A DNA stretch of 64,000 nucleotides from Blasia pusilla (taxonomy: Eukaryota): the NCBI GenBank assembly GCA_050084515.1, contig CM114271.1:11346001-11410000 (forward strand), read 5' to 3'. Positions 1 through 41,930 of this stretch are shown here, piece after piece. The notes beneath the pieces were generated by a model. The model was given only the letters and a program-made list of their open reading frames with translations, did no database searches and was not told the origin of the DNA. The translations under genes and the position numbers were made by a program. Each line of letters starts with the position of its first letter. Position 1 is the first letter of the stretch.

Positions 1-869
1 ACTTAAAGGGGGCACCTATGGACGATTACCATCAGTTTTCCCAAAGATATGCCCATGAGATTGAAGATTGACTCTACTATGATCCACATTATGTGTAATG
101 GACGAATCCGTTTCTCGATGTGGAGGAGGAGTCAGGAGAGGCTTCTTCCTCTTCCATGAGTGATGTTTTAGGAGGAGTAACTCACAAAGGAGCAGTTGCA
201 TCGTCCAGTCGGGTTTGTCCCAGGTTCAACCCCGTGGTTTAGTTCTTTGCAGAGTTGAGGACGAGCTACTAGGGGGTACAGATTGAGAAGTTGCAAAACA
301 TCCACGACTTCCAAAGACGCATGGGTGAGAGTTTGTATGGGGCCTACACTCGCTTGCGCCGGTTGATTAACATCACTCAGGGGGATGACAGAGTCCCAGA
401 CTATCTAGTCATAGTACGCAATGTTGGACCGACTCCTGCGGACACGGGTGCGGGAGGGGTGCTTCTTATGAACACCTCACCTATGTTAAGAGATGTTTTT
501 AGGACCGCCGAGAATATTGAGTGCAAGATGGCAAAGGAGAGTGTAGCCACCATGGGTTCTAGGCAAAAGCAATCACGATTACCTATACCACCAGTGCAAG
601 AACGTGGATTCTGAGATAAGTCTGTGGCACCACGAGCTCAGGAAGGATATAGGGAGGCGTGCCATAGAGAACTACGTCTTCATATGTGGCTCAGCAGCAG
701 TCGCCTATGATTATTTGTCGGGCATGTGGTGGGGGCACAGCTTGTTGCTATCGTTATATGTGGAGCCACCGTAGAGTTGAATCCATAGAGAGGGGAAGCC
801 AGGAAACAGACCAGGCTTCCTCAGTCTTTCACGTTGTCTGAGGCGATGAGGACCCCATCGATGGGTCCT
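1..869 (+). mobile_element. gag-region fragment of DNMT/PHD Gypsy copy 2 (5' part; continues at 13294 after the nested copy 1)
   Basis: Homologous to the reverse complement of about 7250-8595 (ORF 291-614 'NIHDFQRRMGESLYGAYTRLRRLI' matches the copy-1 gag). Ends in gtcct at 865-869, repeated at 13294-13298, where the homology resumes. Confidence 0.85.
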
Positions 870-1638
870 TTCGTGCGCATACACATCGCTACATAACATA
901 CATCGCTGTCATTGAACACACACACAAATACACACGATCCCATGCTAACTCATGGCATCCATACATAGAGGCGAGACGTACCAAAATATCTCCAATTAAA
1001 GTTAGATCCAATCTCTCTCTACACTATCTCATACCATAGCTCTCAAAGGTGTCCACTCTCTCTCATGTCAAACCAAACCCACTCTCCTAATGAGAGGCTT
1101 GGATTACACTCACAAGACAAGGGACCATAACTCCGTTGCCTTATGCCAAGAGGTTCAACAAAGAGAGAATAAGCTCTCAAGCTCCCTCTCTTGGAGGTAT
1201 ACCCCCTTCCCTCTCCCAAGCCCTCTCAACCGTAACCTATGCTCGCACGTTACCTCCTTGGCTCTTGACTTGCTATAGCGGATCAAGGGCCACTTCCAAA
1301 AGTGGAAAGTGAACTATTCCCAATATGGAAACTTACCCGAAATAGTAAGTTTCTCTATATGGCTCCAAATGAGCCGAAACGAAGGGGAAACCTGCTCTCT
1401 TAGGTTTCTCTGGGCCTCTGCAAGTCATTCTCAATCTCCTAGGCATGTCCTCCACTACTCGTGAAAATGCTCTGCTAGATCCCAACGATCTATCCTAATA
1501 GTCATGACAGCTATCGTGCGCATACACATCGCTACACAACATACATCGCTATCATCGAACACACAAGAAACAATTACACACCATCCTATGCTAACTCATG
1601 GCATCCATACACAGAGGCGAGAAGTACCAAAATATCCA
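870..1638 (-). repeat. 3' terminal repeat block of copy 1: A (1512-1638), 11-bp spacer, B (about 995-1500), A (870-994)
   Basis: An approximately 125-bp direct repeat 'tcgtgcgcatacacatcgctac...ccaaaatatc' occurs at 871 and 1514. A G-run (PPT-like on the minus strand) lies at 1643-1648. Confidence 0.85.
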
Positions 1639-1826
1639 AGCGCCCCCCTAATTGGTGGTTAGGTCCCTCTAACTCTAGATAACCATCTATCCCTACCTAC
1701 CACGATATACATCTCTAGGACGCTAAGAGCAGAAAGGCCGGATGCTCATGTGGCCCCATCGTTAGTCACCTTTCCGTCATCCATATCACAGAAAAAGTTA
1801 GAATCAAAACCTACCTAGTATCTCCT

Positions 1827-1975
1827 CTATGTACATCTGGGACACATCCATCGTCCCTGAGGAACCCTAGTGAGAGGTGGCGTCAGACATGCCATATGCC
1901 AACCTCTCGAACTTCCATCACAGACTAGCATCATGGCCGCACCATGGGAAAAACCATACAACATACAACGCAAGC
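1827..1975 (-). pseudogene. PHD finger at the integrase C-terminus (copy 1)
   Basis: RCMLY...MLVCDGSSRGWHMACLTPPLTRVPQGRWMCPRC, a C4-H-C3 pattern; the two Cys missing here are present in copy 2. Confidence 0.88.
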
Positions 1976-3250
1976 GTGCAGGAACTACTGCTAAGCTTGG
2001 ATCTACTGTACCATCAATGTTAGGAAGGTGACATGGCGCACAATTACGCACATGCTCCTTCCATACCATACCATCGCATCCCTCCACCAGGAGAATACCG
2101 GATGGCAAAACGATACGCACTCTCAAGATAGTGCGCCCTGCAATCATATCCAACGTCGTCGGTGCAGTCTACTGCAAGTAGACATAATCTCCCTGATGAA
2201 ACCTCCGGATAGTTAGTCGATAACCACCACCCCGAATAGTCGCATACCTCAACGTATCCTGATGCTGCGCAATCGCCAAGTTCTCGAACGCCATGGGCAT
2301 CACTCTCCAAAACAACTCAGCCCTCTGGGTACATGCTCGCATCCATACATCTAGGTCATCAAGGTCCAATACCTCACCAACATCTCAACGAATGGCCGCA
2401 CGTAAATCTGGCTCTCGGCCATAAAGTAGCAAGTACACTGAAAAAGATGCTAAAGATGCCTGCCTGTTGAATCTGTATCCCATCGCGAACCATGGCAAGT
2501 GGAGGTCCCAATCTCCTAGGTGACCTCTATGCAAGCCATACTTGCATAAACCCCTCTTCACCGTCTGCACAACTCTCTCCGCTAATCCATCCGCCTCGGG
2601 ATGATCTTGCGAAGTCGTGCGGTGGTCGCTCAGCGCATGATTATACAAGGCCTAGAACTCACGGCGAAACTCAGTTCCCTAGTCTATGAACACCTCAGCG
2701 GGTGTGCCATAATGACTCAACACTCTGTCAAGGAAGGCATAAGCTACTCCCTCACTCGCTTTGTCAGGAAATGCAACTAACTTGATCCACTTCGAGAAGT
2801 ACTCAACCATCACCAACACATAACGACTGTGACGCTCCGTCAAAGGCAAAGGTCCTGCAAAATCCAAACTCATCTATACCCTAAGCCCATGATCGATAAT
2901 GGATGCAACTATGGAGTCGGAGCATTGAACGATGCTCGGACCTAATCACACACCACGCACTTGGCAACAAACTGCTGACGTGAGTCTGCATGCCTCGCCA
3001 CCAATACTGAAATCTGGAGCAAGCTGTACGTCCGCTTCATCCAAAAGTGACCCAACTCCTCGTGGGCATGTTGCACTAGTCGTGCTCTCTGCAAAGGATG
3101 TGGCACTACGCGTACTCTACCATCCTCCCAAACCCTCAAAACATGTGTCCCCTCCCAACGGAACCATCTGGCCCGCTGTAGGATCTGATCCCACTCTCTA
3201 GCACCCACGGTGCTCGCAAGGCTGCCACTACAAACGTACTCCAAGACTAC
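1976..3250 (-). pseudogene. DDE integrase with HHCC zinc-binding region (copy 1)
   Basis: HAHEELGHF...CVVC; SLDFAGPLP..YVLVMVEYFSKW; HPEADGLAERVVQTVK. Confidence 0.92.
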
Positions 3251-3459
3251 TCCATCATCATGAATATCTCAGCCACCTGTCGTCTCCTCACTGGCCTCGG
3301 GATCCAAGGACTCTCCACTAGACCTCGCCATCGAAGTCTCCACACTCTGGCTCTCCATAGTCAACATTCCTAAATAGGCTGATGCATGCCATCCTGGCAC
3401 TGACTATTCATCCCTCTCTCCATGCCATCGAGCTCTACTCACATCTCGCTGACTCGGGC

Positions 3460-4900
3460 ATGGGTTACGACTCAACCCGTCTGCATCTTGGTTGAGTGTC
3501 CTAGGTCTATGTACCACGTGAAAATCATACTCCTACAACAATAGAGCCCATCTCGCAAGCTTCCTTGTAAGCTTGTCAGACTCCATCAACCACTTTAGTG
3601 GTTGATGATCACTGATGATGGTAAAGGGGTTGCCAAATAAGTAACACCTGAAATGCGAGAAAACCCACACCGAATCCAAGCACTCACCCTCATAGGATTT
3701 TTACTTTGCCTCTACAGCGTTGTTTGAGCGGCTAGCGTAAGCCACCACGAACTCTCTACCCTCCTCATCATGCTAGGTGAGCACCGCTCCAAGCCCCAAC
3801 ATGCTCCAATCTAGGTGCATCTGGAAAGGACGCCCCCTGATCGGTCTCCTCAAGATGGGCGTAGACGTCAACTTGTCCTTGACCAACTGAAATGCTCCCT
3901 CCTGCTCATCCCCCCAGTGCCACTTGTGATCCATCTTGGTCAGCAAGGTCAGCGGCTTCGCAATCGAATTGAATCCCTTGACGTACCGCGGATAGAAGTT
4001 CGCCAATCCCATGAATGCGCAAACACAGCTCACATCTGTAGGGCGTGGAATATGTGAGATAGCCTCTACCTTTGTCTGCTAAACACCAAGGACCCCTGGG
4101 TATATCGTATGACCCAAATACTCAATCTAGTCGTAGAAGAACTTGCACTTGCCTGGATGTAGCTTCAGCCCATGTAATTGCAATCGTCGAAACACCTCCT
4201 CTAGATGTTGCTGATGCTCCTCAACCGTGGCGCTAAAGACTACAATGTCATCAATATAACACCTGGCAAAATCCAGACCACCCAAGATCCTATCCACGAC
4301 CATCTGAAACTCATATGGGGCGTTCTTTAACCCAAATGGTAAGAACCGCCACTGGTACAAAAAATCCTTCCCGTGAGGATTGATGCCCCAAAATGCCGTC
4401 TTCTTCCTATCCTCCAATCTGATAAGCAGTTGATGGTATCCGGCTTGCAAATCCAATGAACTAAAGACCTTTGCATGACCAATCGTATCAAAGATATCCT
4501 CAAAGGTGGGCATGGCATACCTATCCGACTTCGTCTGCCGATTGATAGGTCGGTAATCCCCACACATCCACGTATCCGTCCAGTTGCCATGCACATCCTT
4601 CTTGGTGGGCATGACAGTGGCAAATGCATACTCCCCATGCGACATCTCCACTAGTCCTGCTCCGACCTAGTCCTGGCTCCTATTCTGAATTAGAGCCCTC
4701 TCCATATCACTGTACCTGTAGGGTCGTTGGAAGATCGGCGTATCACTCCACAACTCAGTGTGGATCCCTGGTCCCTTCAACGTACCCAAATCCTCCATGC
4801 TAAACGCAAAGCAGCTCCTATAACTCTTGAGGAACTGATGTATCCGGTGCCGCTCTCCTCTTGTCAACTTAGGGCCCATATCTGGCTCCCAAGTCTCCAT
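3460..4900 (-). pseudogene. Reverse transcriptase and RNase H (copy 1)
   Basis: MCGDYRPIN, FSSLDLQAGYHQ, LPFGLKNAP, YIDDIVVFS, LHPGKC; FMGLANFY; LDWSMLGLGAVL. Confidence 0.95.
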
Positions 4901-5239
4901 CGTGACTACGGTAGGACTCTCCGGCGCGGGTATCGGTGGTTGCTATGGTGCAACCCCGTCTCGAACAACTACACTCGTCCGCTCTCTTGCAGCCAATTGA
5001 AAACTCTGATCTCCTCCAAGTGCAGTGCCCGGAACCACGCTCGATGTTATGGCTATCATCTCCTGGCGTTCCTGCAAAACATCCCAAGAAGTCCAAGGGT
5101 GTCTCTCCCTATCTTCCATGGTGTGTAGATCTCCTCGGGTCTCGCCCCCAACCACTGCCTCCACCGTCTCGGTAGGCATGGGGCTCACCAATGCAACCGT
5201 TGTGATCTGTCGCGATCTCATACGGCGTTGCTCAGCCAC

Positions 5240-6200
5240 TCCCAAGCTGAGGATCCATGTCAAGCAGTTCAGGTCCATCGCGTGACCCAAGACATGGCAT
5301 CGTGATGCCTCTGACACTGCCGTCACCCCTGTGGGAAATCCCATCGCTCACTCTCTCTCGTCGGCGTTGGGCTCCACCAAACGCTGAACCTGGTCATCCC
5401 AAACCAAGCCAGGACCGGCCTCCTTGTATGCATAGGAAGCGGGAAAACTCACAAACGTGGGAAAGGCTGCCCGCAGCCTGCCTACCCTCTTGACCATAAT
5501 CAACGATGGTCGATCATGTGCCTCATTGCCTCTGATCGACGACCTGGATCCAGAATGGAATCCACTAACAAATGGGAGGGGCGCTCCACTCTCGCATACG
5601 CCCTCCGTAACACCGCACGGGGCACCAAGTTGGTCCACCATAGACGCGGCCAATGGGCTCTAGAACCTACACTTGCCACATCCAAGAACACTACTAGGCT
5701 GATCTAGGCACACACTTGATGAGCACTCGTCATCACCCGTGACCTGGAGTCTCCTAAGGTCGGCACATTCTCCAGAATGTAGGCTGGAGAACGAGACTGG
5801 TGCTCCTGCAACTGCCGTAAGACCCTCAACATCTCCCAAAACAACCTAGACCGAGTGTCAGCCAACCCGCTGCCTCGTCTAGCATTTGATTGGCCCTGAC
5901 ATGGCCAACCGGGAATGACCAAATCAATGGTCCCTACCCGCTCTAAGTCCTGCGCCCCCAACAACGAAATATCCCTCGGTAGGGAACTCAGGTATCCCTG
6001 TACCGCGGACGGAGACAATAAGTGGGGAAAACATAGGCGTAACCGCGCCACATGTCATGGTGAGACGCGCCTCGCAACATCATCACTCTCCACATACAGG
6101 TACTGATGTACTCGCACTCTTGCTTGCAAAACAACAGCTAACCCAAATGCTAATCCCTCCAAAGAGATCTAACACTCGAATACCCTCCTTTGGGGTACAC
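5240..6200 (-). pseudogene. DNMT3-like C5-cytosine DNA methyltransferase domain inside pol (copy 1)
   Basis: Motif I IRVLDLFGG (about 6181-6155), motif IV IDLVIPGWPCQG (catalytic PC), motif VI YILENV, motif VIII-like GSRAHWPRLWWTNL, motifs IX/X EPNADERE.AMGFPTGVT...RCHVLGHAMD, all in canonical order. Confidence 0.92.
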
Positions 6201-6484
6201 CATATAATGGGTGTGGTATCCAAGGGTGTCATCGTAGCACTCCCTGATACCTCGGGTTTCTCACACCCGTCACGCTCCGGTGCAAACGCCTTGCTCCACG
6301 CAGTCTGCCCGTGCTCATTTTCCAATCGTCGAAGCTCCTCAGTCGAGCCCCACAGCGGCACCTTTCCTCCACGGGATGATGTGGCTGCCATAACACTTCT
6401 CTCCATAGAAATGTCAAGAACGGATAATGAGCTAAGGCGCTCATCACTTGACTGCCATCATGGTCTGTAGGACGTTGACTTCTC

Positions 6485-6817
6485 CTAGTAATCCAGGGAA
6501 AACCCCATCAGGTATAATACTGCTCCACCAACCAAGATGCCGTAGGACTCTCCATCAGTTACTATCGCCTTGGCTCGCGCCATGGACTCATAAGTAGGAT
6601 GTCCCGGGTGAATCCTCACCACGACCTCCTGTTGGATGATATAATGTGTGGCACTCGCTCCACCCAAGGATGTCTGTATCTGGAATGGAGAATGCTCCAC
6701 ATCGGCTCTTGTCAAGCCCAATCCTCTAAATGACGCTTTCCCCAACATCAAGGGTTGCGCTCCTGAATCCAACAAGATGCGCTGTGGACTAGAAGCTCTA
6801 TCTTCGGGACTCACCAA
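6485..6817 (-). pseudogene. Retroviral-type aspartic protease (copy 1)
   Basis: ILLDSGAQ active-site motif and downstream ILVGG. Confidence 0.85.
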
Positions 6818-8970
6818 CTAGAAGACCTCTCGGTTATCCAGAAACACAACACCAGGAGAATCTCGACACATGCCTCTCCTGATCATCAACAATAGGAGTT
6901 GTCGCACTCGTTTCTTCCATCGCCCTCCATGCTTGCATACCAACAACATCACCAAGGGCAGGCCCATCACCTCCTCTACAATCACCTCTGAACGTGATGC
7001 AAGAACTCCAACTCCACGCTCACATAGCGTAGCGGCCAGCCGAAAAGCCTTGGTGAGCGTACCCCCCAACGTCATAACATCCGATGTAGAAAATAAAGGA
7101 GCGCGGTACACAATGGTGGCCGCCCCCAACAACATGCTCGACACATGCCTCTCCTGAGCATCAACAATAGGAGTCGTCGCACTCCTTTCTTCCATTGCCC
7201 TCCGTGCTTGCATACCAACAACATCACCAACTCCTGAGGAACTTCGATCAAGACCCATCGATGGGGTCCTCATCGCCTTGCACAACGTGAAAGACAAAGG
7301 AAGCCTAGTCTGTTTCCTGGCTTCCCCTCGTTGTGGATCCAACTCTACGGCTACTCCATGCGTCACAACTGCGGCTACCTCCATCAAGGCAACCCCGCAC
7401 ATCCAACCAGGATCCTCCATATCTTTGGTTGCTCCATATGATGTTGATGCTACGGATCCGGCATCAGGTAATCTCAATGCCATAGCGTGAATCTGCTCTT
7501 GTATCTGAGCAGCCATCCTAGCCTCACGCCCGACATCTCCCTCGACGCATCGAGGTGGTAGGACTCTACCTCCTCCATGGGCAGCTCCACCACCGTGTCG
7601 GGCAACTCCAGCTACTCATCCCCCAATGGGACCACCTGGTGCACAATCTCTAGGCCCACCCCGACCGGCTACTTGCTCTGGTGCCCTCTCTGGCCCTCGG
7701 TCCGGATGTAACTTAAGATGTAAATTGAAACACCTGGCGCATGTATGACCATACCTTTGACAATAGTCACACTGATAACCTCTTGGTGCAGCACCATCTC
7801 CTCCTCCATGCTGAGGCACACGTCCATGACCCTGACGAGTGCAATCGCATTGATGATGGGCTCCACCATATGACCAACAAGTAATAGTAGGTGGTTGTTA
7901 TTGAGCCGTATATGAAGGCGCAGGTCTCTGTGGCACGGCCTCCCGGTATCCTCCTTGAGCTTGTGGTGCCACAGTCAACCTATCTCGGAGTTCACGTTGC
8001 TACACAGGTGGTGTAGACAATCGCGACAGCTCTTGCCCAGAACCCATGGTGGCTACGCTCTCCTCCGCCATGTTGCGCTCAATGTTCTTGGCGGTCCTAA
8101 AAACATCTCTCAACGTAGGGGAGGTATTCATAAGAAGCACCCCCTCCTGCACCAATGTCCGCAAGGTCTAGTCCAGCATCGCGTACCAGTATTGGATAGC
8201 ATGAGCCTCTATCACCCCCTGAGTGACGTTGATCAACCGGCACAAGCGAGTATAAGCCTCACACAAACTCTTACCGGGCGCCTCTAGAAGTTGTGGATGC
8301 TCCGCAACTTCTCCGTCCATACCCCTTGGTAGCTTGCCCTCAACTCAGCACAGAACTCAACCACAAGGTTGAACCTGGGACAAACCCGACTAGACGGTGC
8401 AACTGCTCTCGTGTGAGTGACCCCTCCTAAAACGTCACTAGTGGAAGAGGAAGTAGCCTCTCCTCACTCCTCCTCATCTGGAAATGGCTCTATCCATGAC
8501 ACATAATGTGGGTCATAGTAGAGCTTCCACGCCTCGATCTCACGTGCATATCTCTGAGAGAACTCATGGTAATTTTCCATGGGCGCCCCCTCTAAATGCT
8601 GGAACATACCATTCCATGCTGTAAATGGGTTGAACTCACTAGAGTCCGTGGCCCGCTGGGAGTCGCACCAACTCCTAAAGTCTGGTATGAAATCGTGCAA
8701 CTCAATCGTACCTACTGCATCTAAAAACCTACGCGGTCCTCTACCCAAGTCGTCCATCTCGTACGCCCAACTCGTAGGACCACTCACAATGTGTGGCAGT
8801 GTGCTCACAAACTCCTCTACATCCTCCTCCTCATTTGACGATGACACAGAAGGAGGTCGAGGTGGTCCCTCATGTGGAGACCCTAAGAACCTCGCGCCAC
8901 TCCGCGTAAAACCTCTAGAACTGCTCTGGGGTTCACCACCTTGACTCTCAAAGTCCCGAACGGACTCCAT
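6818..8970 (-). pseudogene. gag with CCHC zinc knuckle (copy 1)
   Basis: ORF 8464-8970 (FQHLEGAP..Y) and CDYCQRYGHTCARC at about 7730-7772; lies upstream of the protease. Confidence 0.78.
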
Positions 8971-10586
8971 GATGACCCTCGTGCCCCTCTCACTCGATCA
9001 CTCTCAACCCCACGAGTAATCCCTCAATCACTCATCCCAAACATGCGGCATTCGATCTACACTCTCCCTCCCCGAGACATGTAATGTGCGGCAACAAACA
9101 GCATGGTGCGGCAAATCGACCAAGCTATCATCTCATCGACAACCTACCCTCAACTCCGGAACATCCCACACAGGTCTATGTCCTCTAAACCACATACATA
9201 AGTGATGCTCTCAGCATCCACACAACCCAATATCCCCAAATAAACTTCCAAAATCCCACAATCCCTCACGCGTGTAGGGTAAAGGACCAGAATGGGTAAC
9301 CTGAACACATGTCGATGTCGCTCCTTAGCAATTGCAAATCTCAACCCCAACTTGGTCGTGGAGACAACTCCACCAATCAGCAAGCCATACTCCTCCCGCA
9401 CTGATGCCACTCAAAACTCCTCGAAAGATAGTGCGGTTCCAACGGAACGGTGGGGCGTTGCAGGCGGCACGGAACGGCTACGAACGACACGACCCTTGAT
9501 GGTGGGATGCGGCACTCGACGGCATACCCTCCTCAATCAACAATAAACCCACACTCTGCTCCACAATGATGGAGCGGCTCTGCGATCGAGACGGTGCAGT
9601 GTAGCCACGAGCGGCATGACGCAGCAATCGGCGGCGCGTTGCGGCTACGGGCGTCACGACACGGTACTCAATCTTTGTCGAGCGGCTACCAATCATAACA
9701 TAATAGCATGAAATCGAAACTCAAACACCATAAACGGAGGTCATCTTCCATCATTGGTTGATGACGAAACTGCGATAACGGTGGCGGCCAAAACAAAGTA
9801 CGTGGTGGCGACGCAAGTCAGAGAATCAACGAACGTCATAGAAGACCCTCCACTCCATAATGGCGGCAATGGCAACCAAAGGGTGGACCATTGAAGGTGA
9901 CGGTTGATGGTGACTATGATGGCGACGGCCGCCGCCGGCGTGGCGCCTGGTTTAGGGTTTGAACAATTTAACCCTAAAAATTGCCTAGCAATGGCAATTT
10001 TGCAAGATTGACCATAACTTTTTGCTCGCAACTCCAAATTGCGCATGGTTTATTCTACAGTGTGCACAACTTCACAATCTACGATAATATCAAAAATTTT
10101 TAGAATCAAACATTCCAGTAAAAACTGACAGGGATTTTTGTAAAGCCCAATGTCTCTTTCTCCTACACAAAATTTGGCAAGGCTTCCACGCTGATTTCTC
10201 CCAACGAAAATGTAAACCTGTAAAAATACAAATCAGCAAGCTACATGGTGCTCCCAAGAGCACTGGCATGGGGCAACCCGCTCCCATACTCAATCCCTAT
10301 CAAAAATTGGGCAGCGCTTCCCTGCGCCACTCTTCCACACGAAAAATCAGCAAGTGCAAAGAACAATCAAAGCAACCCTTGCTCCGGTGAGCACTCCTAT
10401 GAGCCACTGAATGGGACACAGTCCTCAACCTGAAAAAACAGCGAGCTGCCAGCAAGCTCCCCCATGAAGCTCTCTGACTCTCTCATTCTCTTGTGCGCCC
10501 CTCATAAGTGGCTCCCGTGTATGTTAGATACTTTTGGGACTCTAGTTAGGTGAGTAGAAGGAGCTAGAACAACAATCTGCAATTTA

Positions 10587-12707
10587 AATGGGATCATTGG
10601 TGCTATTTTGACCAAGATGGTGGCAACTCACAAATCAGATTGGGATAGGAAATTAGCTTCAGCTGTCCATGCTTACAACACAGCTGAGAAGAGTACAACA
10701 GGGAAAAGGCCCTACTTCTTGGTGTATGGGCAAAACCCTCTCTCGGTAGTAGAGTTGGAGTTGAAGACTCATCACACTCTAGAAGGGCACTTCCAACCTG
10801 AAGGTGGCATAGATAGCACGCTGGATATGATTGATGCCCTAGAGGAGGAAAGAAAGGCAGCATTGGAGAAGACCAAGGCGGTTCGGCAACAAAGGAAGAT
10901 GAGGTTTGATAACCGAATAAAGCATGATCCAGTGAAGGATGGGGACCTGGTGCTGATGTATGATAGTCGACACCAAAAGTTTTCAGGAAAGCTGCACATT
11001 CGACAGCTTGGGCCTTATCAGGTGGAGCTGAAGAGCATCCAAGGGAGTGATGAGAGCAGGTGGAGCTGAAGAGCATCCAAGGGAAGTGATGAGAGCAGGT
11101 GGAGCTGAAGAGCATCCAAGGGAGTGATGAGAGTAGGTGGAGCTGAAGAGCATCCAAGGGAAGTGATGAGAGCAGGTGGAGCTGAAGAGCATCCAAGGGA
11201 GTGATGAGAGCAGGTGGAGCTGAAGAGCATCCAAGGGAAGCTCGAACCAGCTTGAGAAGAAGCAAGCATGGGAAGAATGTAAAGGTAGGTCTTACCTTCA
11301 AGCATGTCCAAGAGACAAGTCGAGCCTATGCCATCAATGCTGCTCAAGAGACTTTAGTTAGGACAGGTTCAGAAGTAGATGAGGTAGAAATTTCATGCAG
11401 TAGATGCCTTGGAGTAGATGCTTAGGGGGAGGTAGATTTGTAGGAAGGTAGGAACCCTGAATGCCAGAGAAGCCCAAGTGGGAAGAGGGCTCTCAGCTTC
11501 ACTTATAAATACTCAGTTGGGTTTGCTTGAAGGGGGGCATATACATGTTGTTGGCTAGTAGACACTCAATCTCTTGAGCCAAGCTAACCAGCAGAGTTAT
11601 GTGCTCCCAGATCTAGGTAGTGTGTAGTGTGCTTGAAGGGGGCTGAGACTAAGAAGGTCTCCCATGTACTCGATGATTTTTTTGATACACAGAAGGTAGC
11701 CCTGTGAAATGAGTTCACTCCACTACCCTGTATCTGAGTTTGTGCATGATTGAGTGATGAGTTTGGGGGGTTGATGAAGTGAGATTCTTGGAGCTGATTC
11801 AACTAATCATTAAAAAGTGTAGTGAGTGGACAAGAGGCTATACCAGTAGAGGGGAGGCAAGCTTGGGTTCCAAGATTGTGCTCCACCAAGATGTGCTTGG
11901 AAAGCTTGCTGTTCTGCCCACCTGAGCTTGGCCTTTGACACCAATCATTGATTACTTCCTGGGTGTGACAACTTGGACTTCCAGGTCTGGTAAGTGATAA
12001 GAGTTAGTGAGTGGAGAGAGAGAGAGAGGGTCATGCTTGAGCTCCCCTATAGGTAGAAGACCATGGGCTCAGCCTATTAAGTCTCCTACTACCTGAACAA
12101 GAAGGGAGAACAAAGGATCAGCAAGGTAAGAGGAGAAGAAGAAGGGACGTGGGTGTTGGTTTGAGCAAATAGAGAGTTTCTTTCCTTTCAGGCTACCCTA
12201 GGGGTGGATGATTATACTAGACAGCGTATTGGATGGCCTTATGTTTTTTTTAGTAGTCTCTAGTTGTGAGCCTTGAGTATGTGTGCTGGTTGAATTCCCA
12301 CTGAGCACTCTATCTAAGGACTCAAAACTACACCCAAGCTCTCACTAGATACTCGGTGAGGAGAAAAAGGTGATTGCACTACCTGATCGGTTAGGAGTTG
12401 GGTGTGCTTTAGAGGATGTCCTTGGTACATTCAACTAGTCCAAGGCAGCACATTGGAGGACCTTATGCTGTCTGGTCATTCTTGACTGTGATTTCTAAGT
12501 AGAGTGTGCTTGTTGGGTTCCACTGGCCACTCCACTCAAAGCACTCAAGAGAAAGGAAGGAGTTTTGGTTAGTAGGGTGAGGACAGGATTGTGATATTGA
12601 AGTGGAGAGAGTTTCTCTAGCCTCTTAAGGTAAAGAGGTGGGGTTTACAGCTGTTAAGGAGTACATCTTGTAGATCTGATCTTTTGATCTGGCCCTAAGC
12701 TCTTACA
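10587..12707 (+). mobile_element. 3' fragment of an unrelated Gypsy element: integrase C-terminus, PPT and probable 3' LTR (about 11439-12707)
   Basis: NGIIGAILTKMV..DWDRKLASAVHAYNTAEKSTTGKRPYFLVYG...GDLVLMY..KL...GPY; purine tract 11424-11436 followed by tgtagg...cttaca. Confidence 0.75.
11019..11240 (+). repeat. Tandem repeat of alternating 38/39-bp units (about 5.8 copies)
   Basis: Unit caggtggagctgaagagcatccaaggga(a)gtgatgagag starts at 11019, 11057, 11096, 11134, 11173 and 11211. Confidence 0.95.
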
Positions 12708-12790
12708 TGGGACCGAACTGGTGGAACTAGCAACATTTTCTCCTGGGTTGTGTGCTGGCCATGTATTACCTGGTGAGACATCTCTCTTTG

Positions 12791-13293
12791 TAAAGTAAAA
12801 TCCAATCTCTCTCTACACCATCTCACACCATAGCTCTCAAAGGTGTGCACTCTCTCTCATGTCAAACCAAACCCACTCTCCTAATGAGAGGCTTGGGTTA
12901 CACTCACAAGGCAAGGGACCATAGCTCCGTTGCCTTATGCCAAGAGGTTCAACAAAGAGAGAATAAGCTCTCAAGCTCCCTCTCTTGGAGGTATACCCCC
13001 TTCCCTCTCCCAAGCCCTCTCAACGGTAATCTATGTTTGCAGGTCACCTCCTTGGCTCTTGACTTGCTGTAGCGGGTCAAGGGCCACTTCGCAAAGTGGA
13101 AAGTGAACTATCCCCAACATGGAAACTTAACCGAAATACTAAGTTTCTCTATATGGCTCCAAATGAGCGGAAATGAAGGGGAAACATGCTCTCCCAGGTT
13201 TCCCAGGCCTCAGCACGTCATTCTCGACCTCCTAGGCCTGTCCTCCACTACTCGTGAAGACGCTCTGGTAGATCCCACCGATCTATCCTAACA
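12791..13293 (-). repeat. 5' terminal repeat (B segment) of copy 1
   Basis: Near-identical to about 997-1500; ends ...gatctatcctaaca immediately before the TSD gtcct. Confidence 0.9.
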
Positions 13294-13653
13294 GTCCTGA
13301 TGAGAGTTTGCGGAGAGTTGATGTTGTTGGTGTGCAGACACGGAGGGCGATGGGAGAAGCGAGTGCGATGACTCCTAATGCTGATGCTCGGGAGGAGCAT
13401 GTGCCGAGTACGATGTTGGGGGCGGCCACGATGGTGTACCATGCTCTGTTGTTTTCTGCTTTCGATGTTATGATGTTGGGAGGTACGCCCGCCAAGGTTT
13501 TCTGGTTGGCCGCTATGCTATGTGAGCGTGGAGATGGAGTTCTTGCATCACGTTCAGAGGTGATTGCAAAGGAGGTGATGGGGATGCCCTTGGAGCTGAT
13601 GCTCGGGTTGTCCACCTCAGATTCATGGCAGGTTGCAGCTACTAGGATGGCGG

Positions 13654-14217
13654 AGAGGAGAGGAAGAGAGGAAGAGAGGAGAGAGGAAGATATTGGCAAC
13701 CCCTAGGGCTCTTTTGGTTTGAAGAGAGTTTCCGACAAGTTGAAGAGAGGAAAAATTTGACAAGTTGAAAAGGAAAAATTTTCCAAAAAAATTGGTGGTG
13801 AAAAAAATTTTGAATTTTTTTTTACCTTTTCAACTCGTCGGAATCCAATGGGTTGCAATTTATTTTTTATGGTTAAGGAAAAATTTTCATTTTTTTGGGT
13901 TTTTTTAACATTTGCAACCCGTCGGAGTCCAACCGGTTGCAAATGTTAAAAAAACCCAAAAAAATGAAAATTTTTCCTTAACCCACAAAAAAAAAAACCA
14001 AAAAATTGCATCCCATCGGATTCCGACAGGTTGCACTAAGTTTCCTCTCTTCAAAAAAAATCTCAAAAAAATTACTCACTTATTATCCATAATCTTCATA
14101 TTTTTTGAAGAGAGTTTCAGTTTTCTTTCCCTTTTGTGCCTTTTTTTTAAGAGAGGCTCTACTCTCTTCCTCTCTTCCTCTCCTCTCTTCCTCTCTCCTG
14201 CCAGAATACCAGCCCCT
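13654..14217. mobile_element. Foldback/MITE-like non-autonomous DNA transposon, possibly Mutator-like
   Basis: Long imperfect palindrome centred near 13928, with (GA)-rich and (TC)-rich ends. Flanked by the duplication ggatggcggaga at 13645-13656 and 14218-14229. Interrupts copy-2 gag. Confidence 0.75.
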
Positions 14218-15059
14218 GGATGGCGGAGATGCCCACTAGACCCACGATAGAGCATGCCATGGTTGCTCCAGGTGTTGTGTTGCTAGATAACCAAAGAGAG
14301 ATCTTTGAGTTGGTGAGTCCAGGAGGTAGATTGTTTTTTTCATAGCATGTCTTGTTAGATTCAGGAGTACAACCCCTGATGTTGGGGAAGGCGGCATTGA
14401 CGAGGTTGGGCCTAACGAGGGCCGATGTGGAGCGTTGTCCATTAAGAATACATACATCCTTGGGTGGAGCGAGTACCACATACTTTATCACCCGCCATGA
14501 GGTCGTGGTGAGGATTTGCCTAGGACATCCTACAGATGAGTCCGTGGTACGAGCCAAGCCAATCGTGATCGATGCACAGTCCTACGACGTCTTGGTTGGT
14601 GGAGGAGTGTTGTACCCGATGGGATTTTCCTTGGATTACTAGGAGGAGTCAGCGTCCTACAGACCAAGATGGTAGTTTGGCGATGGGCGAATTAGCTCAT
14701 TACCTGTTTGATTCACGAGTGGAGTGATCGAGCGATGGCCAAGAGAGATGGCAACTTTAGGAGCATTTAGCAGCGCCATCACGTGACCTTCTGATTTGAT
14801 TGAGGGGCATGTCCGTAGAGGACATCTCGCGCCTGACACTTCTAGGGAGAGGAGTGTTATGGTAGCCGCATCATTCTGTGGAGGAGAGGTGCCGCCGTGG
14901 GGCTCAAGTGAAGATCTCTGACGTTTATCTGATGAGCACGTGTAGACGGCTTGGACTGAGGCGTTTGCACTAGAGCGTTCCGGGTCAAAGGGACTCGAGG
15001 TAGCCGTAAGTGCTACTATGATCCCTTTCGACATCACCCCGATTGTGTGGTGCATTCCA

Positions 15060-16030
15060 GAGGAGGGTATTTGCGTGTTGGATCTCTTTGGAGATATGAG
15101 CACTGGCTTAGCTGCTGTTTTGTAGGCAGGAGTGCGTGTACAGAAGAACTTCTACTACTGCTGTACGTGAGATTGATGATGTTGCAATGCGCGCTTCACT
15201 TCACATGTAGCGCACTTACACCTCCGATTTCCTGACTTATTGTCTACGTCCGCCATCTAGGGATACAAGAGTTCCCTACCGAGGGACATTTCATTGTTGG
15301 GGGCGTAGGACTTGGAGCGGGTACGGACCATAGATTTGGTCATTGCTAGTTGACCATGTCAGGGTCAATCGAGTGTTGGACAAGGTAGCGGGTTGGTTGA
15401 CACTCGATCAGGTTGTTTTGGGAGATGAAGCGGATCTTGCGACACTTGCAAGAGCATCAGTCTCGTTCTCCAGCATACATTATGGAGAATATTCTGATTT
15501 TGGGCGATTTGAGGTCTTGCATGATGACAGTGCACATCAAGTGCACGCATGGATTGGCCCGACAATGTTGTTGGATGCGGAGAGTGTAGGTTCACAAGCA
15601 CATCGCCCACGTCTTTGGTGGACCAACTTGATGCCACATGAGATTTTGCAAAGGGCGTACGCGAGAGTGGATCGCCCCTCCCATTTGTTGGTGGATTCTA
15701 TTCTAGATCTAGGTCGTCGGTCACAGGCAGTACGACACGATGATCGACCTCCGTTGATTATGGTCAATAGGATTGGCATGCCATGAGCAGCCTTTCCCAC
15801 ATTGGTGAGTTTTCCCTCTCCCTATGCATTGAAGGAGGGCGGACCTGGTTTGGTTTGGGATGCAAAGTACAGCGGTTGGTGGAGCCTAACGCCACCAACC
15901 ACATGGGATTTCCCACAATAGTGACAGAAGTATCGTCACTATCAGAGGCATTACGACGACATGTCCTGGGTCAGGCGATGGACTGCTTAACATGGATTTT
16001 CAGCTTAGGAATAGCTGAGCAACGTCGTTT
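15060..16030 (+). pseudogene. DNMT3-like methyltransferase domain (copy 2)
   Basis: ICVLDLFGD; IDLVIAS*PCQG (about 15330-15365); YIMENI; GSQAHRPRLWWTNL; LVEPNA..MGFP...RRHVLGQAMD. Confidence 0.9.
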
Positions 16031-16629
16031 GAGGTTGCGACACATTATAATTATTGTGTTGGTGAGCCCCATGCCTATCAAAACCGTTGAGGCACTGGCT
16101 AGGGGCGAGACCCGAGGAGATTGACACACTAGGGATGATCGAGAGAAACACCCCTAGACTTCTTGGGATGTTTTGCAAGTACGCTAGGAGATGCTAGCCA
16201 CAACATCGAGCATGGTTTGGTTTGGCATGCACGTGGAGATCAGAGTTTGCAGTTGGCTATAGGGGAGCAATCGAGTTTTGTTGTCTGAGACAGGGTTACA
16301 CCATAGCAAACACCATGGTTGGAGTAGGACTAGTGGAGATGTCGCATGGAGAGTATGCATCTGCCACTATCATGCTTGCCAAGAAGGATGCGCATGGTAA
16401 CTGGACGGATACGCGGATGTGTGGAGATTACCAACCTATCAATCGGCATACGAAGTCCAATAGATATGCCATGCCTACCCTTGAGGAGATGTTTAATGCT
16501 ATTGGGCATGCAAAGGTCTTTAGTTTGTTAGATCTTCAAGCCGGAGGCCATTAGTTGCCTATCAGATAGGAGGATAGGCAGAAAACGATATTTTGGGGCA
16601 TCGATCCTCATGGGAAGGATTGCTTGTAC

Positions 16630-19077
<2,448 letters not shown>

Positions 19078-21459
19078 GCTTGTATGAGTGGTGGTTCTTA
19101 CCATTTGGGTTAAAGAATGCGCGGCTGAGTTTCAGAGGGTCATGGATAGAATCGTGGTAGGTCTCGATTTTGCTAGGTGTTATATTGATGACATCGTAGT
19201 CTTTAGCGCCATGGTTGAGGAGCATGAGCCACATCTAGAGGAGTTGTTTTGACGATGGCAGTTATATGGGCTGAAGCTACATCGAGGCAAGTGCAAGTTC
19301 TTCTACGACTAGATTGAGTACCTAGGTCATACCATATACCCAAGTGGCCTTGGTGTGGAGCAGAATAAGGTAGAGGCTATTTCATGCATTCCACGCGCTA
19401 CACATGTGAGTCGAGTTCGTGCATTCATGGGATTGGAAAACTTCTATCGACGTCAAGGTTTTCACTTCAATTGCGAAGCCGCTAACTTTGCTGACCAAGG
19501 TGGATCAGGAGTGGCATTGGGGGGATGAGCAGGAGAGAGCATTTCAGTTGCTCAAGGACACATTGACATCTGCGCCCATATTGAGGAGACCGATCAAGGG
19601 GCGTCCTTTCCAATTGCATATCGATTGGAGCATGTTGGGACTTGGAGCCGTGCTCATCCAACATGACGATGATGGTAGAGAGTTCGTGGTGGCTTACGCT
19701 AGTTGCTCAAAAAACATTGCAGAGGCAAAGTATAACTTGTATGAGGGTGAGTGCTTGGCTGCAATGTGGGTTGTTGCACATTTCAGGTGTTATCTATTTG
19801 GCAACCCCTTTACCATTATTATTGATGATCAGCCACTTAAGTGGTTGATGGAGTCCGACAAGCTTATAGGAAAGCTTGCAAGGTGGGCTCTTTTGTTGCC
19901 GGAGTATGACTTCTAGGTGGTGCATAGACCTGGGATGCTCAACCAGGATCTAGATGGTTTGAGCCGTAACCCATGTTCGAGTTAGCGAGATGCGACTGGA
20001 GCTCATTGGCATGGAGAGAGTGATGAGGAGTTGGTGCTAGGATGGCACACGTTAGGCTATTTGGGCTTGTTGGCTATAAAGAATCAAATTCTTGAGACTT
20101 CGATGGCGAGGTCTTATGAAGAGTCCTTAGATCTAGAGGCCGGTGAGGAGACAAGAGGTGGCCGAGATATTCACGACGATGGATTAGTCTTGGAGTACCT
20201 GCGTACTAGCAGCGTCGCGAACACAATGGGTACTAAAGAGCGGGATCGGATCCTACAACAAGCCAAACGGTTCCGGTGGGAGAGGACCCATGTGTTGCAA
20301 GTTTGGGAGGATGGTAGAGTATGTGTATTGCCTCATCCTTCATAGAGAGCACGTTTGGTATGTCATGCCCAAGAGGAGTTGGGTCATTTTGGAGTGAAGC
20401 GGACGTACATCTAGCTTGCTCCAGATACAATATTGGTGGCAAGGCATGCATACTGACATTCAGTAGTTTGTTGCCAGATGCATGATGTGTGATTGGGTCT
20501 AGGCATCGTTCAATGCTTTGACTCCACAATTACATCCACTTTCGATCATGGACTTAGGTTATAGATGGAGTTTGGATTTTGCCAGACCTTTACGTTTGAC
20601 ACAGCACCATAGTCGTTATGTGTTGGTGATGGTCGAGCACTTCTCAAAGTGGATAGAGTTTGTTACATTGCCTGACAAAGCCAATGAGGGAGTAGCGTAT
20701 GCCTTCCTAGATCGAGTCATTACAGCGCACCAACTGAGGTGTTGATAGACGAGGGTACAGAGTTTTGTCGGGAGTTTCAAGCCTTGTATGATCAGGCGCT
20801 GATCGACCACCGCACCACTTTGTGAGATCATCATGAGATGGATGGACTAGTGAAGAGGATTGTGCAAACAGTGAATAGAGGATTACGCATGTATGCCTTG
20901 GAGAGAGGTCATTTAGGAGATTGGGACCTCCAATTTCCGAGGTTGGCGATGGGATACAGATACAGCAAGCAGAAATCCTTAGCGTCTTTCTCACTGTTCT
21001 TGCTACTTTATGGTCGAGAGCCGGATTTACCTGTGGCCATTCGTCGAGATGTTGTTGAAGTGATGAACCTTGATGACCTTGATGTATGGATGCGATCATG
21101 TTCATAGAGGGCTGAGTTGTTTAGGAGAGTGATGCCCATGGTGTTTGAGAACTTGGCGATTGCGCAACATTGAGATACGTTGAGGTATACGACTATTTGG
21201 GAAGGTGATTATCGACCTACTATCCGTAGGTTTCATCAGGGATAATATATCTCCTTGCAAGAGATGGAACCTATGAAGTTGGATATGACTGTAGGGCGCA
21301 CTATCTTGAGAGTGCGTGAGGTTTTGCCATCTGGTGTTCTCTTATTGGAGGGATGCGATGGTATGGCTTGGAAGGACCATGTGCGTAACTATGCGTCAAG
21401 TCACCTTCCTAACATTGATGGTACAATAAATCCGAGCTTAGTAGTAGTTCTTGCAGGCT

Positions 21460-21605
21460 TGCAATGTATGTTGTGTGGTTATGCCTGTGGTGCAGCCACT
21501 ATGCTAGTCTGTGATGGATGTTTGAGAGGATGGCATATGGCATGTTTGACGCCACCTCTCACTAGGGTTCATTGGGGATAAGGGATGTGTCCTAGATGTA
21601 CATAG
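21460..21605 (+). pseudogene. PHD finger at the integrase C-terminus (copy 2)
   Basis: CMLC...MLVCDGCLRGWHMACLTPPLTRV, then MCPRC after a frameshift. Confidence 0.88.
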
Positions 21606-21786
21606 AGTAGGTAGTTCTAGATTCCAACTTGTGTCTCTAATATGGATGACAAGAAGGCGAAAAATGATGGTGCCACAAGAGCACCCAACCTTTTTGCTCT
21701 TAACGTCCGAGAGATGTATGTCATAGTAGGTAGGGATAGATGGCTATCTGGAGTTAGAGAGATCTAACCACCAACTAGGGGGCGAT

Positions 21787-22551
21787 TGGAGATATTTTGG
21801 TACTGCTCGTCTTGTTGTGTGTATTCCATGAGTTAGCATGGGATTGCGTATGTTTGTGTGTATGTTCGATGACTGCGATGGATATTGTGTAACGATGTGT
21901 ATGCGCACGACAACTATCACGTCTTTAAGGATAGATCGGCGAGATCTAGTAGAGCATCTTTGGAGATACTGGAGGATATCTTCAAGAGGTCAAGGATGAC
22001 ATGCTAAGGCCATAGGTAGCATACGAGAGCAAGTTTTCCTTTTGGTTCGGCTCATTTGGAGCCATATTGAGGAACTTACTATTTTAGGTAAGTTATTGTT
22101 TTTGGTATAGTTGAATTTTCACTTTGGGAAGTGGCCCTTGTTTTGCTACAGCAAGTCAAGAGCCAAGGAGGTGACTTGCAAGCATAGGTTACCGTGGAGA
22201 GGGCTTGGGAGGAGGAAGGGGGTATACCTCCAAGAGAGAGAGCTTGCGAACTCATTCTCTCTTTGTTGAACCTCTTGGCATGAGACGGCGGACCTATGGT
22301 CCTCCTTACCTTGTGTGTGTAATCCAAGCCTCTGATTAGTAGAGTGGGTTTGGTTTGACATGAGAGAGACTGCACACCATGGAGAGCTTGGTGTGAGATG
22401 TTGATGCGAGATTTCATTGATTTATTGGAGATATTTTAGTACTTCTCGTCTCGTTGTGTGTATTCCATGAGTTAGCATAGGATCGTGTTTATTTGTGTGT
22501 AGGTTTGATGACAATGATGTATGTTATGTAGCAATGTGTATGTGCACGATA
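21787..22551 (+). repeat. 3' terminal repeat block of copy 2: A (21787-21912), 11-bp spacer, B (21924-22425), A (22426-22551)
   Basis: tggagatatttt...gcacgaca/ta occurs twice; B is homologous to 995-1500; G-run taggggg at about 21776-21782. Confidence 0.88.
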
Positions 22552-22579: not shown

Positions 22580-23930
22580 CTAACATCTCCTCTATGCGTA
22601 GTACCCTGAATTACGCTGGATGTTATGGCTACCAACTCCTGATGTACCTGCAAAACATCCCAACAAGTCCAAGGGTGTCTCTCTCGATGACCATTAATAT
22701 GTTGATCTCCTTGGATCTTTCCCCTAGTCATTGCCTAAACCGTATCGGTAGGCATGGGGCTCATCAACGCAATAGATATGACGTGTCGCAACCTCATCCG
22801 ACGGTGCTCAGCTACTCCTAAGCTGATGATCAATGTCAAGCAATTCAGATCCATCGCCTAACCCAAGACATGATGTCGATGCCACTAATAGTCATAGTAT
22901 TGTTATCACTCTTGTGGGAATTCCCATTTCCGGCTCTTGCTCATCGGTGTTGGGCTCCACCAATCGATAAGCCTTGTCATCCCAGACCAAGCAAGGACTG
23001 ACCTCCTTGTGTGCATAGGAAGTGGGAAAACTCAAAAAAGTGGGAAAGGCTGCTCGTGACATGCGAATCCTATTGACCACAATAAATGATGCTCATGTGC
23101 TCATGAACCTATACTCGCTGCATCCAAAAATATTGTTGGGTCGATCCATGCATCCACCTGATGTGCACTTGTCACCACCCATGACCTTGAGTTGCCCAAG
23201 ATCAATACATTCTTTTAAGATGTACTTTGGGGAATGAGGTTGATGTTCCGACAAATGTTGCAAGATCCTCATCATCTCCCCAAACAATATGGAATGAGTA
23301 TCAGCTAACTTGCTACCTTGTCCAACACTCAAGTGGCCTTGACATGACCAACCAGCAATGAACAAATTCATGGTCCCTACCCGCTCCAAGTCCTACGCCC
23401 CCATAAAAGAACTGTCCCTTGGTAGCGACCTGTGGTGCCTCCTATACGGATGACATAGACAACAAGTTTCATTGGGAAAATGGAGGCATAACTATAGTAA
23501 ATGTTGAAGTGAGATGCGCCTCAAAATCTCATCAAGCTCCACATACAAGCACTGGCGCATACGCATCCCTACCTACAAAACAACAACCAACCCAATTATG
23601 ATCCCTCTAAGAAATCCAATACCTGAATAGCCCCCCCTCTAGGATGCCCCACACAATTGGTGTGGTGTCAAAGGGTGTCATTGTAGCACTCCCGGCTACC
23701 TTGGGTTCCTATGACCCATCATGCTCTAGTGCAAACATCTCACTCCACACTATCTCCACATGCTCATCGGCCAAGCGTCGGAGCTCCTCACTCGAGCCCC
23801 ACACAGGAACTTCTCCTCAAGGGAATGATGCGGCTACCATAACACTCCTTTCCGTAGAAGGTGCTAGACAGAGATGTGTGCCTTGCATGGACATGCTCCT
23901 CAATCAGATGTGGTCTCATGAGGGGACCAC
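22580..23930 (-). mobile_element. DNMT/PHD Gypsy copy 3: fragment with the DNMT3-like domain and flanking linkers
   Basis: Collinear with about 5010-6430: ERVGTMNLFIAGWSCQG, YILKE, LVEPNTDEQEPEMGIP. Confidence 0.85.
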
Positions 23931-41790: not shown

Positions 41791-41834
41791 TATGCATATT
41801 AAGAGACCTTGTTGAGACGAGTGTTGATTTAATT

Positions 41835-41930
41835 AGAGATATTTAGGTACTCGATATTTGGATGTCATGAGCTAGTATGGGATCTTGCGTCTTTGTGTGT
41901 GTATTTTGTGACAACGATGTATGCGTAGGA
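41835..41930 (+). repeat. Degenerate solo copy of the A terminal segment of the DNMT-Gypsy family
   Basis: gagatatttaggtact...catgagctagtatgggatc...tgtgtgtgt...aacgatgtatgcg resembles 21788-21910. Confidence 0.55.

Follow-up and report, generated by a model that had tools for sequence, protein, structure and literature searches.

Split direct repeats on a Gypsy family with a DDE integrase, and a candidate route of integration through an internal palindrome

Whether LTR-LTR junctions are integration substrates or dead ends is a decades-old dispute in the retroviral field. In insertion sequences of the IS3 family, a DDE transposase integrates a circle opened at abutted ends that lie a few bp apart; these elements transpose as DNA, by way of a true circle, and reverse transcription plays no part. 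On the retroviral side, one study argues for the junctions as substrates, describing how the foamy virus integrase cuts palindromic LTR-LTR junctions into processed ends (PMC1180852). In foamy virus and HIV-1 (PMC1180852, PMC1905944), the palindrome comprises two att halves, could be opened by a DDE integrase, and is formed on a side route by the joining of cDNA tips. Tf1-type self-primed elements (Tf1/Sushi, and Tcn1 of plants) are described as using no tRNA, their PBS being complementary to the predicted 5′ end of the RNA; they have a PPT, a DDE integrase and a pair of equal LTRs whose tips carry the att sites, and Tcn1 is a chromovirus (PMC6317226, PMC4600332). PAT/Ngaro elements are reported to carry split direct repeats, of which a single one stands at the 5′ end and three lie side by side at the 3′ end (PMC7192593). 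The closest description is that of KnitGypsy-Dnmt3 from Klebsormidium nitens, which combines DIRS-like repeats (A-coding-B-A-B) with Gypsy domains according to the legend of Fig. 4c in de Mendoza et al. 2018; the parts of text and supplement available give no TSD, priming site, junction, mechanism or PHD finger for it (PMC5890265). A search of the literature, most subscription journals and Repbase excepted, returned no published mechanism for a split-repeat Gypsy element with a DDE integrase.

Two copies of one Gypsy family are present in the window, the 64-kb stretch of Blasia pusilla DNA that was analysed. The consensus element reads B-internal-G-run-A-GC-B-A, with a 4-bp TSD and a DDE integrase. 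By its published description (PMC5890265), KnitGypsy-Dnmt3 resembles this family in having a C5-methyltransferase in Gypsy pol and DIRS-like repeats. The present family shares with Tf1 and Tcn1 a PBS complementary to the predicted RNA 5′ end, a PPT and a DDE integrase, and differs from them by a PHD finger, a DNMT and split ends. Its split direct repeats are those of PAT/Ngaro, but it is not a member of that group: it has an rve integrase and no tyrosine recombinase, 4-bp TSDs of random sequence, TG...CA ends, a PBS and a PPT. Unlike the junctions of foamy virus and HIV-1, its palindrome is RNA-encoded, has a 2-bp centre and is apparently the sole source of ends. The terminal design is real, conserved and largely overlooked, the layout being on record once, in the KnitGypsy-Dnmt3 figure legend.

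Copy 1 lies on the minus strand at 869-13293, nested in copy 2, which lies on the plus strand (1-868 and 13294-22551) and whose 5′ side is interrupted by another copy. The site as it was before copy 1 inserted is collinear with positions 7220-7270 of copy 1 itself. Both 3′ ends (copy 1, minus, 869-1649; copy 2, plus, 21777-22551) read G-run, A (128 bp), 2 bp, B (about 512 bp), A; the repeats are called A1, B3 and A2 in that order, and the 5′ repeat B5. The parts are as follows.

865-868: TSD GTCC (4 bp) at the 3′ end of copy 1, matching 13294-13297
869-996, minus: A2 of copy 1, the terminal A copy, ending in the att half ...GCACGACA, decayed in copy 1
997, minus: end-to-end joint B3/A2 of copy 1, with one extra base corresponding to the first base of the PBS, as judged from the joint spectrum
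998-1509, minus: B3 of copy 1, starting TGTCA
within 998-1509, minus: putative poly(A) region in B3 of copy 1
about 1158-1173, minus: self-primer sequence within B3 of copy 1
about 1196-1203, minus: TATA-like box within B3 of copy 1
1506-1515: att-att palindrome GACA-GC-TGTC (end of A1, 2-bp GC, start of B), with one transition in copy 1
1512-1640, minus: A1 of copy 1, directly after the PPT, putative template for A2
1641-1649, minus: polypurine tract (G-run) of copy 1
1830-3268, minus: integrase (H2C2, rve DDE core) with C-terminal PHD finger, copy 1, with stops and a frameshift
3401-4942, minus: reverse transcriptase and RNase H, copy 1, containing stops
about 5200-6200, minus: C5 cytosine methyltransferase domain of copy 1, between protease and RT, frameshifted (PF00145, E 2.4e-11 on 5707-6054)
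about 6488-9000, minus: gag with zinc knuckles and aspartic protease, copy 1, assigned by eye, the protease being under the Pfam cut-off; relatives have the same order
10482-10491, minus: 3′ part of the self-priming PBS of copy 1, beyond the foreign insertion
10492-12780, plus: foreign TG...CA insertion in the PBS of copy 1, with its own 5-bp TSD TCTCT, unrelated to the family
12781-12791, minus: 5′ part of the self-priming PBS of copy 1 (ACAAAGAGAGA), immediately after B5
12792-13293, minus: B5 of copy 1, the 5′ repeat without A, beginning at an internal TG 9 nt short of the family end
13294-13297: TSD GTCC (4 bp) at the 5′ end of copy 1
21777-21784, plus: PPT of copy 2
21785-21912, plus: A1 of copy 2
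21913-21914, plus: junction centre of copy 2 (2 bp), AC, a decayed GC
21915-22423, plus: B3 of copy 2
22424-22551, plus: A2 of copy 2

The original prediction had described both 3′ ends as G-run, A, an 11-bp spacer, B and A. This order stands in both copies, but the spacer is 2 bp long. Family members begin TGTCAC, 9 nt upstream of B as previously called, and end so as to be bounded by TGTCA...CACGACA (TG...CA); the supposed 11 bp are therefore 2 bp plus the first 9 bp of B. Similarly A, which had been placed at a TG, begins ATTGG immediately after the G-run. A reading of the 11 nt as a retained self-primer was discarded, as the 5′ ends identify 9 of them as the real terminus. At its 5′ end, copy 1 indeed consists of B alone, bounded by the TSD at 13294 (4 bp, GTCC). 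The caveat that a 5′ A segment and a PBS might have been lost near 12790 is refuted: the insertion there sits inside the PBS with TCTCT as its TSD, and excision of 10492-12780 in silico leaves B-PBS-UTR, the usual leader of the family, without A. At position 13293, the target adjoining the internal TG resembles the missing 9 nt at 6 of 9 bases.

A split-direct-repeat design on a DDE-integrase Gypsy element, as originally proposed, is borne out family-wide. The 14-mer that ends A has 5,062 exact matches in the genome, against 1 for its reversed control; the junction pattern, which recovers 20 of 28 known junctions, has 2,811 against 48 for the control, and B-PBS has 2,025. All 40 candidates scored, out of 8,986, matched most of an A-B-A query. 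At the 29 other loci fetched, internal sequence leads into A-B-A and then into unrelated flank, with the G-run intact ahead of A1 in 27. Extension of the fetched loci by 10 kb gave 15 5′ ends, in which B is followed by the leader and never by A (0/15); among 30 5′ ends picked independently (two overlap the first set and one is truncated), A abuts B in none. It had been asked whether A follows B at 5′ ends, and whether the extra A is confined to a small subfamily; the answer is no in both cases, the layout extending also to families with unrelated A and B. The two equal LTRs of Ty3/Gypsy elements are thus wanting: A stands between the PPT and B3 and again after B3, and is absent from the 5′ end. 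As had been claimed, no purine tract precedes B, the purine fraction in the 10 nt upstream being 0.59 for B versus 0.78 for A1.

The 2 bp between A1 and B3 read GC in 8, AC in 12, GT in 6 and AT in 2 of 28 junctions; judged from the sequences, AC, GT and AT are transition products of GC. The 4-bp TSD is exact in 7 of 14 elements and has at most one mismatch in 11, versus 0/182 and 10/182, respectively, when flanks were paired wrongly. A 5-bp TSD was rejected for the family (0/14 exact).

The coding order of the family is gag, protease, C5-methyltransferase, RT, RNase H, integrase and PHD finger, the copies in the window being broken by stops and frameshifts. The PR-RT-RH-IN order with an rve DDE integrase is that of Ty3/Gypsy, and the catalytic D, D and E are invariant in 22/22 relatives. 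The second D and the E (D744 and E779; row P0003; window 2388-2873, minus) are separated by 35 positions, whereas the spacing in retroviruses is usually one longer, and this short spacing is possibly relevant to an unusual substrate. No chromodomain, as carried by the Tcn1 chromoviruses, was matched; a PHD finger occupies the integrase's C-terminal end instead. A search for tyrosine recombinases (PF00589), made as a loose first look, gave a single weak match genome-wide, within a 281-aa open frame at G000:C20:19592-20047, on a contig unrelated to the family loci. The three long ORFs of an intact relative contain no recombinase either; it is on this genome scan and these three ORFs that the absence of a recombinase is stated.

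The original prediction also envisaged a non-canonical strand-transfer or priming scheme. Replication must be non-canonical, but priming looks canonical for a self-primed element, with a PBS after B5 and a PPT before A1. Immediately after B5 comes a sequence that can pair with a site within B, 28-31 nt behind a TATA-like box. In five of six 5′ ends, which represent four families with different sequence pairs, the helix between PBS and primer counts 16, 16, 14, 16 and 10 Watson-Crick bp, a length attained by 0, 0, 0, 0 and 1 of 200 shuffles, respectively. The sixth, decayed 5′ end (L157) fails this test, with 8 bp reached by 8/200 shuffles; in a fifth family, a 13-nt pair was recognized by eye. 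In the sequences, the pairing covaries across the four families, which is the signature of Tf1-type self-priming. A tRNA PBS, which was to be looked for, was rejected, as TGG is absent after B5 and the self-priming PBS stands there instead; the window has no tRNA genes, which is uninformative on priming. In one copy, L293, the point of fold-back coincides exactly with the primer sequence, as predicted by the PBS-primer pairing.

Since A begins at the first base after the G-run and the PBS follows B5, the unit that reverse transcription duplicates, between PPT and PBS, is A-GC-B, and the joint formed end to end is B/A, not A/B. The A-spacer-B joint, taken at first for an end-to-start circle junction, is instead an inherited att-att palindrome, the new joint being B3/A2. 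Among the first 100 of 1,230 B/A joints (three of the listed matches are tandem neighbours), 70 are flush, the last base of B against the first base of A, and 25 carry a prefix of the PBS, which is a single nucleotide in 20 cases, 2 nt long in three, and 4 and 11 nt long in one case each; the remaining five are point variants. Because the PBS occurs only at the 5′ end, its remnants at the 3′ joint must be added in each cycle. In the family of the intact relative, the start of the PBS and the start of A (L336:6940-6960 and 7415-7430) have ACTTGA in common, and such microhomology could help RT to jump; in other families the two starts have 0-2 nt in common.

Stranded RNA reads came from two runs chosen by species label, and were aligned at 85% likeness to a single 3′ end, on which reads from many copies fall. 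Sense depth was 136-231 in A1, 162-385 in U3 and 7-12 in A2, falling across the last 100 bp of B3. RNA therefore mostly ends before A2, in B3. The depth displayed no step at the predicted start, and no position where many molecules begin or end. The kinship of the two A copies was also assessed. Across 40 pairs, A1 and A2 have 81 subfamily alleles in common, versus 32.7 ± 7.7 in shuffled pairs (0/2,000); within one young star-like subfamily, shared private alleles are not in excess (9 vs 11.1 shuffled, 28 pairs). Divergence is 0.078 between A1 and A2, about that between B5 and B3 (0.074), and in an intact young relative, a contig pair from a bacterial MAG, A1 equals A2 over 106 bp.

The first base of A is a hotspot for joints: a pattern that excludes the normal upstream bases gave 124 matches. 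Of 30 that were read, 2 have mutated PPTs, 8 have longer PBS prefixes, which thus recur at 8/30 loci, and 20 (19 independent) are aberrant, joining the exact first base of A to truncated, inverted or filler DNA. A control of the same design, at one internal position of A, gave 10 matches, 5 of them true breakpoints. Of 16 aberrant loci that were extended, 4 are flanked by a TSD that matches; at least 2 have a B start but a TSD that does not match, and for the others a left end was not found, so that the far ends of most inverted copies are missing from the data. Both att ends and an exact TSD are kept in five aberrant copies (L276, L093, L293, L099 and L110), L099 being a one-LTR form, B-internal-PPT-A. 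Filler DNA lies at joints in L110, L270, L279 and L284. In 7 of 10 targeted matches, a palindrome half with the central dinucleotide is joined to the start of A (4 A ends, 3 inverted B starts). Such GC-tagged ends are what the fill-in of a 2-nt staggered cut after each CA would leave, although with n = 7 they could alternatively result from RT template switches. Deletions that remove the PPT in L277 and L292 stop exactly at the first base of A1, with B3 and A2 intact.

The favoured hypothesis, to which I assign a probability of about 0.58, is that a self-primed and PPT-primed cDNA integrates by the opening of its left palindrome, with a 4-bp TSD, its real tips being joined to each other. The RNA would start about 30 nt after the TATA box of B5, and its end is seen in B3. 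Its 5′ end, which is complementary to the PBS after B5, would pair with it and self-prime the minus strand as in Tf1. The plus strand would be primed at the G-run, and ordinary strand transfers would yield a linear cDNA with A-GC-B at both ends, as suggested by where A starts and B ends. Integrase would then open the left GACA^GC-TGTC with a 2-nt stagger, generating two normally processed CA-3′ ends and the 4-bp TSD. Either before insertion or after it, the cDNA tips, namely the end of B, carrying a primer-site remnant of 0 to about 11 nt, and the first base of A, would be joined end to end, in the joint that is observed, through template jumping of RT or through end-joining by the host. The product would be B-internal-PPT-A-GC-B-A. 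The RNA ends, self-priming, cDNA and tip joining are highly probable; the opening of the left palindrome by integrase with a 2-nt stagger is probable. The unusual step looks to lie in how the ends form and integrate rather than in how synthesis is primed.

The absence of permuted copies bears on how the ends arise. Copies of the form B-A-GC-B-internal-A were sought over the initial 13.4 Mb of contig 1, where a junction lies about 510 bp upstream of 17 of 42 joints and about 130 bp downstream of none. PBS sites have an upstream junction in 2 of 72 cases, both tandem copies, and the lone permuted candidate of the contig 1 scan is a nested insertion. The process is consequently one-sided, and opening of the palindrome needs an added left-side bias. 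Such a bias may stem from the order of synthesis, since the second strand transfer would at once make the left repeat double-stranded, and the right one would have to wait for full plus-strand synthesis; a left repeat that is double-stranded first would also fit the many 3′-truncated bodies. The missing permuted copies are accounted for if the ends are set by priming, a second plus-strand primer at the GC of A1 fixing the start of B, a third RT jump leading from the end of U5 into A with a stop after GC, and integrase trimming GC from blunt ends. This scheme also accounts for exact A starts on truncated or inverted bodies and places the same GC at both ends, as in the aberrant copies. However, the purine fraction before B (0.59) betrays no purine tract, a 5′ end of the minus strand is required at the same GC to make the right end, which leaves one palindrome to provide two unexplained primers or nicks, and the filler DNA at the L110, L270, L279 and L284 joints resembles break repair; I regard end formation by priming as unlikely. 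A closed 2-LTR circle with B and A ligated by the host may instead be obligatory, integrase opening one A-GC-B junction in the manner of IS3. The structure of the element is that of a 2-LTR circle opened at the left junction, its B/A joint has primer remnants like LTR-LTR junctions, and the one-LTR form L099 with its exact TSD and the foamy-virus precedent as published (PMC1180852) fit as well. Yet the two junctions of such a circle would have the same surroundings, over about 128 bp to one side and 510 bp to the other, and half of the insertions are therefore expected to be permuted. Permuted copies predicted by a symmetric 2-LTR circle, sought in three ways, were not found (17 to 0 among the joints, and 0/30 5′ ends), which makes an obligatory circle distinctly unlikely.

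If B+A were simply an ordinary LTR, and the element had a fixed second A inside it, inherited by read-through, the 5′ A having been lost in an old deletion, this would explain why solo B+A copies (L090, L094, L096, L110 and L118) behave as an LTR with exact 4-bp TSDs, and why RNA depth in A2 is low and non-zero. With the PBS confined to the 5′ end, a fixed structure cannot yield PBS prefixes that vary at the 3′ joint; furthermore, RNA mostly stops before A2, and the same layout occurs in families with unrelated A and B. This explanation is largely refuted and very improbable. A tyrosine recombinase acting in cis or in trans on a PAT/Ngaro-like element would account for the repeat layout, which is the same in the published description (PMC7192593), but it is refuted by the 4-bp TSDs of any sequence with TG...CA ends and by the coding content (invariant DDE residues, the one weak PF00589 match lying elsewhere in the genome, none in the three long ORFs of the intact relative), and is scarcely tenable.

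The design recurs beyond the family. A second family in the same genome is about 75% identical internally and has the same layout, its A and B being unrelated except for the last 37 nt of A and TGTCAC. A third (junction followed by TGACC; L044, L108:1387, 1475, 1521) is well transcribed and resembles the metagenome loci L127, L129 and L130. When 36 metagenome or viral loci were dot-plotted, most having termini out of range or too decayed, B...A-B-A was found in six contigs representing five distinct loci (L129, L135, L143, L145/L146, L150, L157), B...A-B as far as the contig end in L130, and 3′ A-B-A in nine further loci, two of which are repeats of the same loci. These relatives keep the G-run before A and the CACGACA-GC-TGTCA junction; one TSD is exact, three have one mismatch and one has two. 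The palindrome is conserved in relatives whose proteins are about 46-64% identical to the query, and the same junction is present in the intact relative formed by the stray contig pair in a bacterial MAG. L336, L337, L338-L340 and L343 are eukaryotic retrotransposon contigs in bacterial MAGs, one protein being annotated as cyanobacterial; the more distant, GC-rich L338-L340 and L343 have no recognisable termini. In the intact relative, a single in-frame stop (L336:3489-3491) splits gag-PR-DNMT (1,162 aa) from RT-RH-IN-PHD (1,047 aa), and the split recurs at this position in many relatives from the databases, suggesting readthrough or splicing. By protein similarity, with termini out of view, named relatives are found in Marchantia polymorpha, Haematococcus and Monoraphidium, and weakly in Closterium; no Klebsormidium-named sequence appeared in the protein similarity searches, and IMG/VR gave no relative with termini. 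L204 was discarded as an unrelated element with a long extra ORF, and the repeats of L172 were traced to an inserted, unrelated solo LTR (10812-11868) with a flanking 57-bp duplication inside pol. The odds are about even that a green-lineage clade of DNMT-PHD Gypsy elements carries its att sites in an RNA-encoded internal palindrome and integrates only through its cleavage, the tips being joined before or after.

If integration by opening of the palindrome is confirmed, no LTR retroelement before this one would have had junction opening as its normal route. It would also provide a DDE-based path to the split-repeat design of PAT/Ngaro, and possibly show how an ordinary self-primed LTR cycle can give rise to split direct repeats. 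The family, which is natural, abundant and transcribed, appears dependent on such a junction, and offers a 10-bp substrate together with intact integrase genes in relatives; the substrate question is therefore directly testable. LTR finders are described as requiring equal LTRs with TG/CA ends and a TSD (PMC6317226); they should miss or mis-bound these elements, of which there are thousands in this genome.

Several minor features accompany the two copies. The insertion at 10492-12780 contains an integrase-like ORF (10554-11066, no Pfam match) and a 77-bp tandem repeat. Just after copy 2, at 22585-23909, lies an inverted fragment of the methyltransferase region of the family, and a lone, decayed A-like relic is found at 41828-41923. 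L120-L123 are tandem copies with one complete PPT-A-GC-B-PBS unit in common, and in one of them the leader is amplified about 7-fold.
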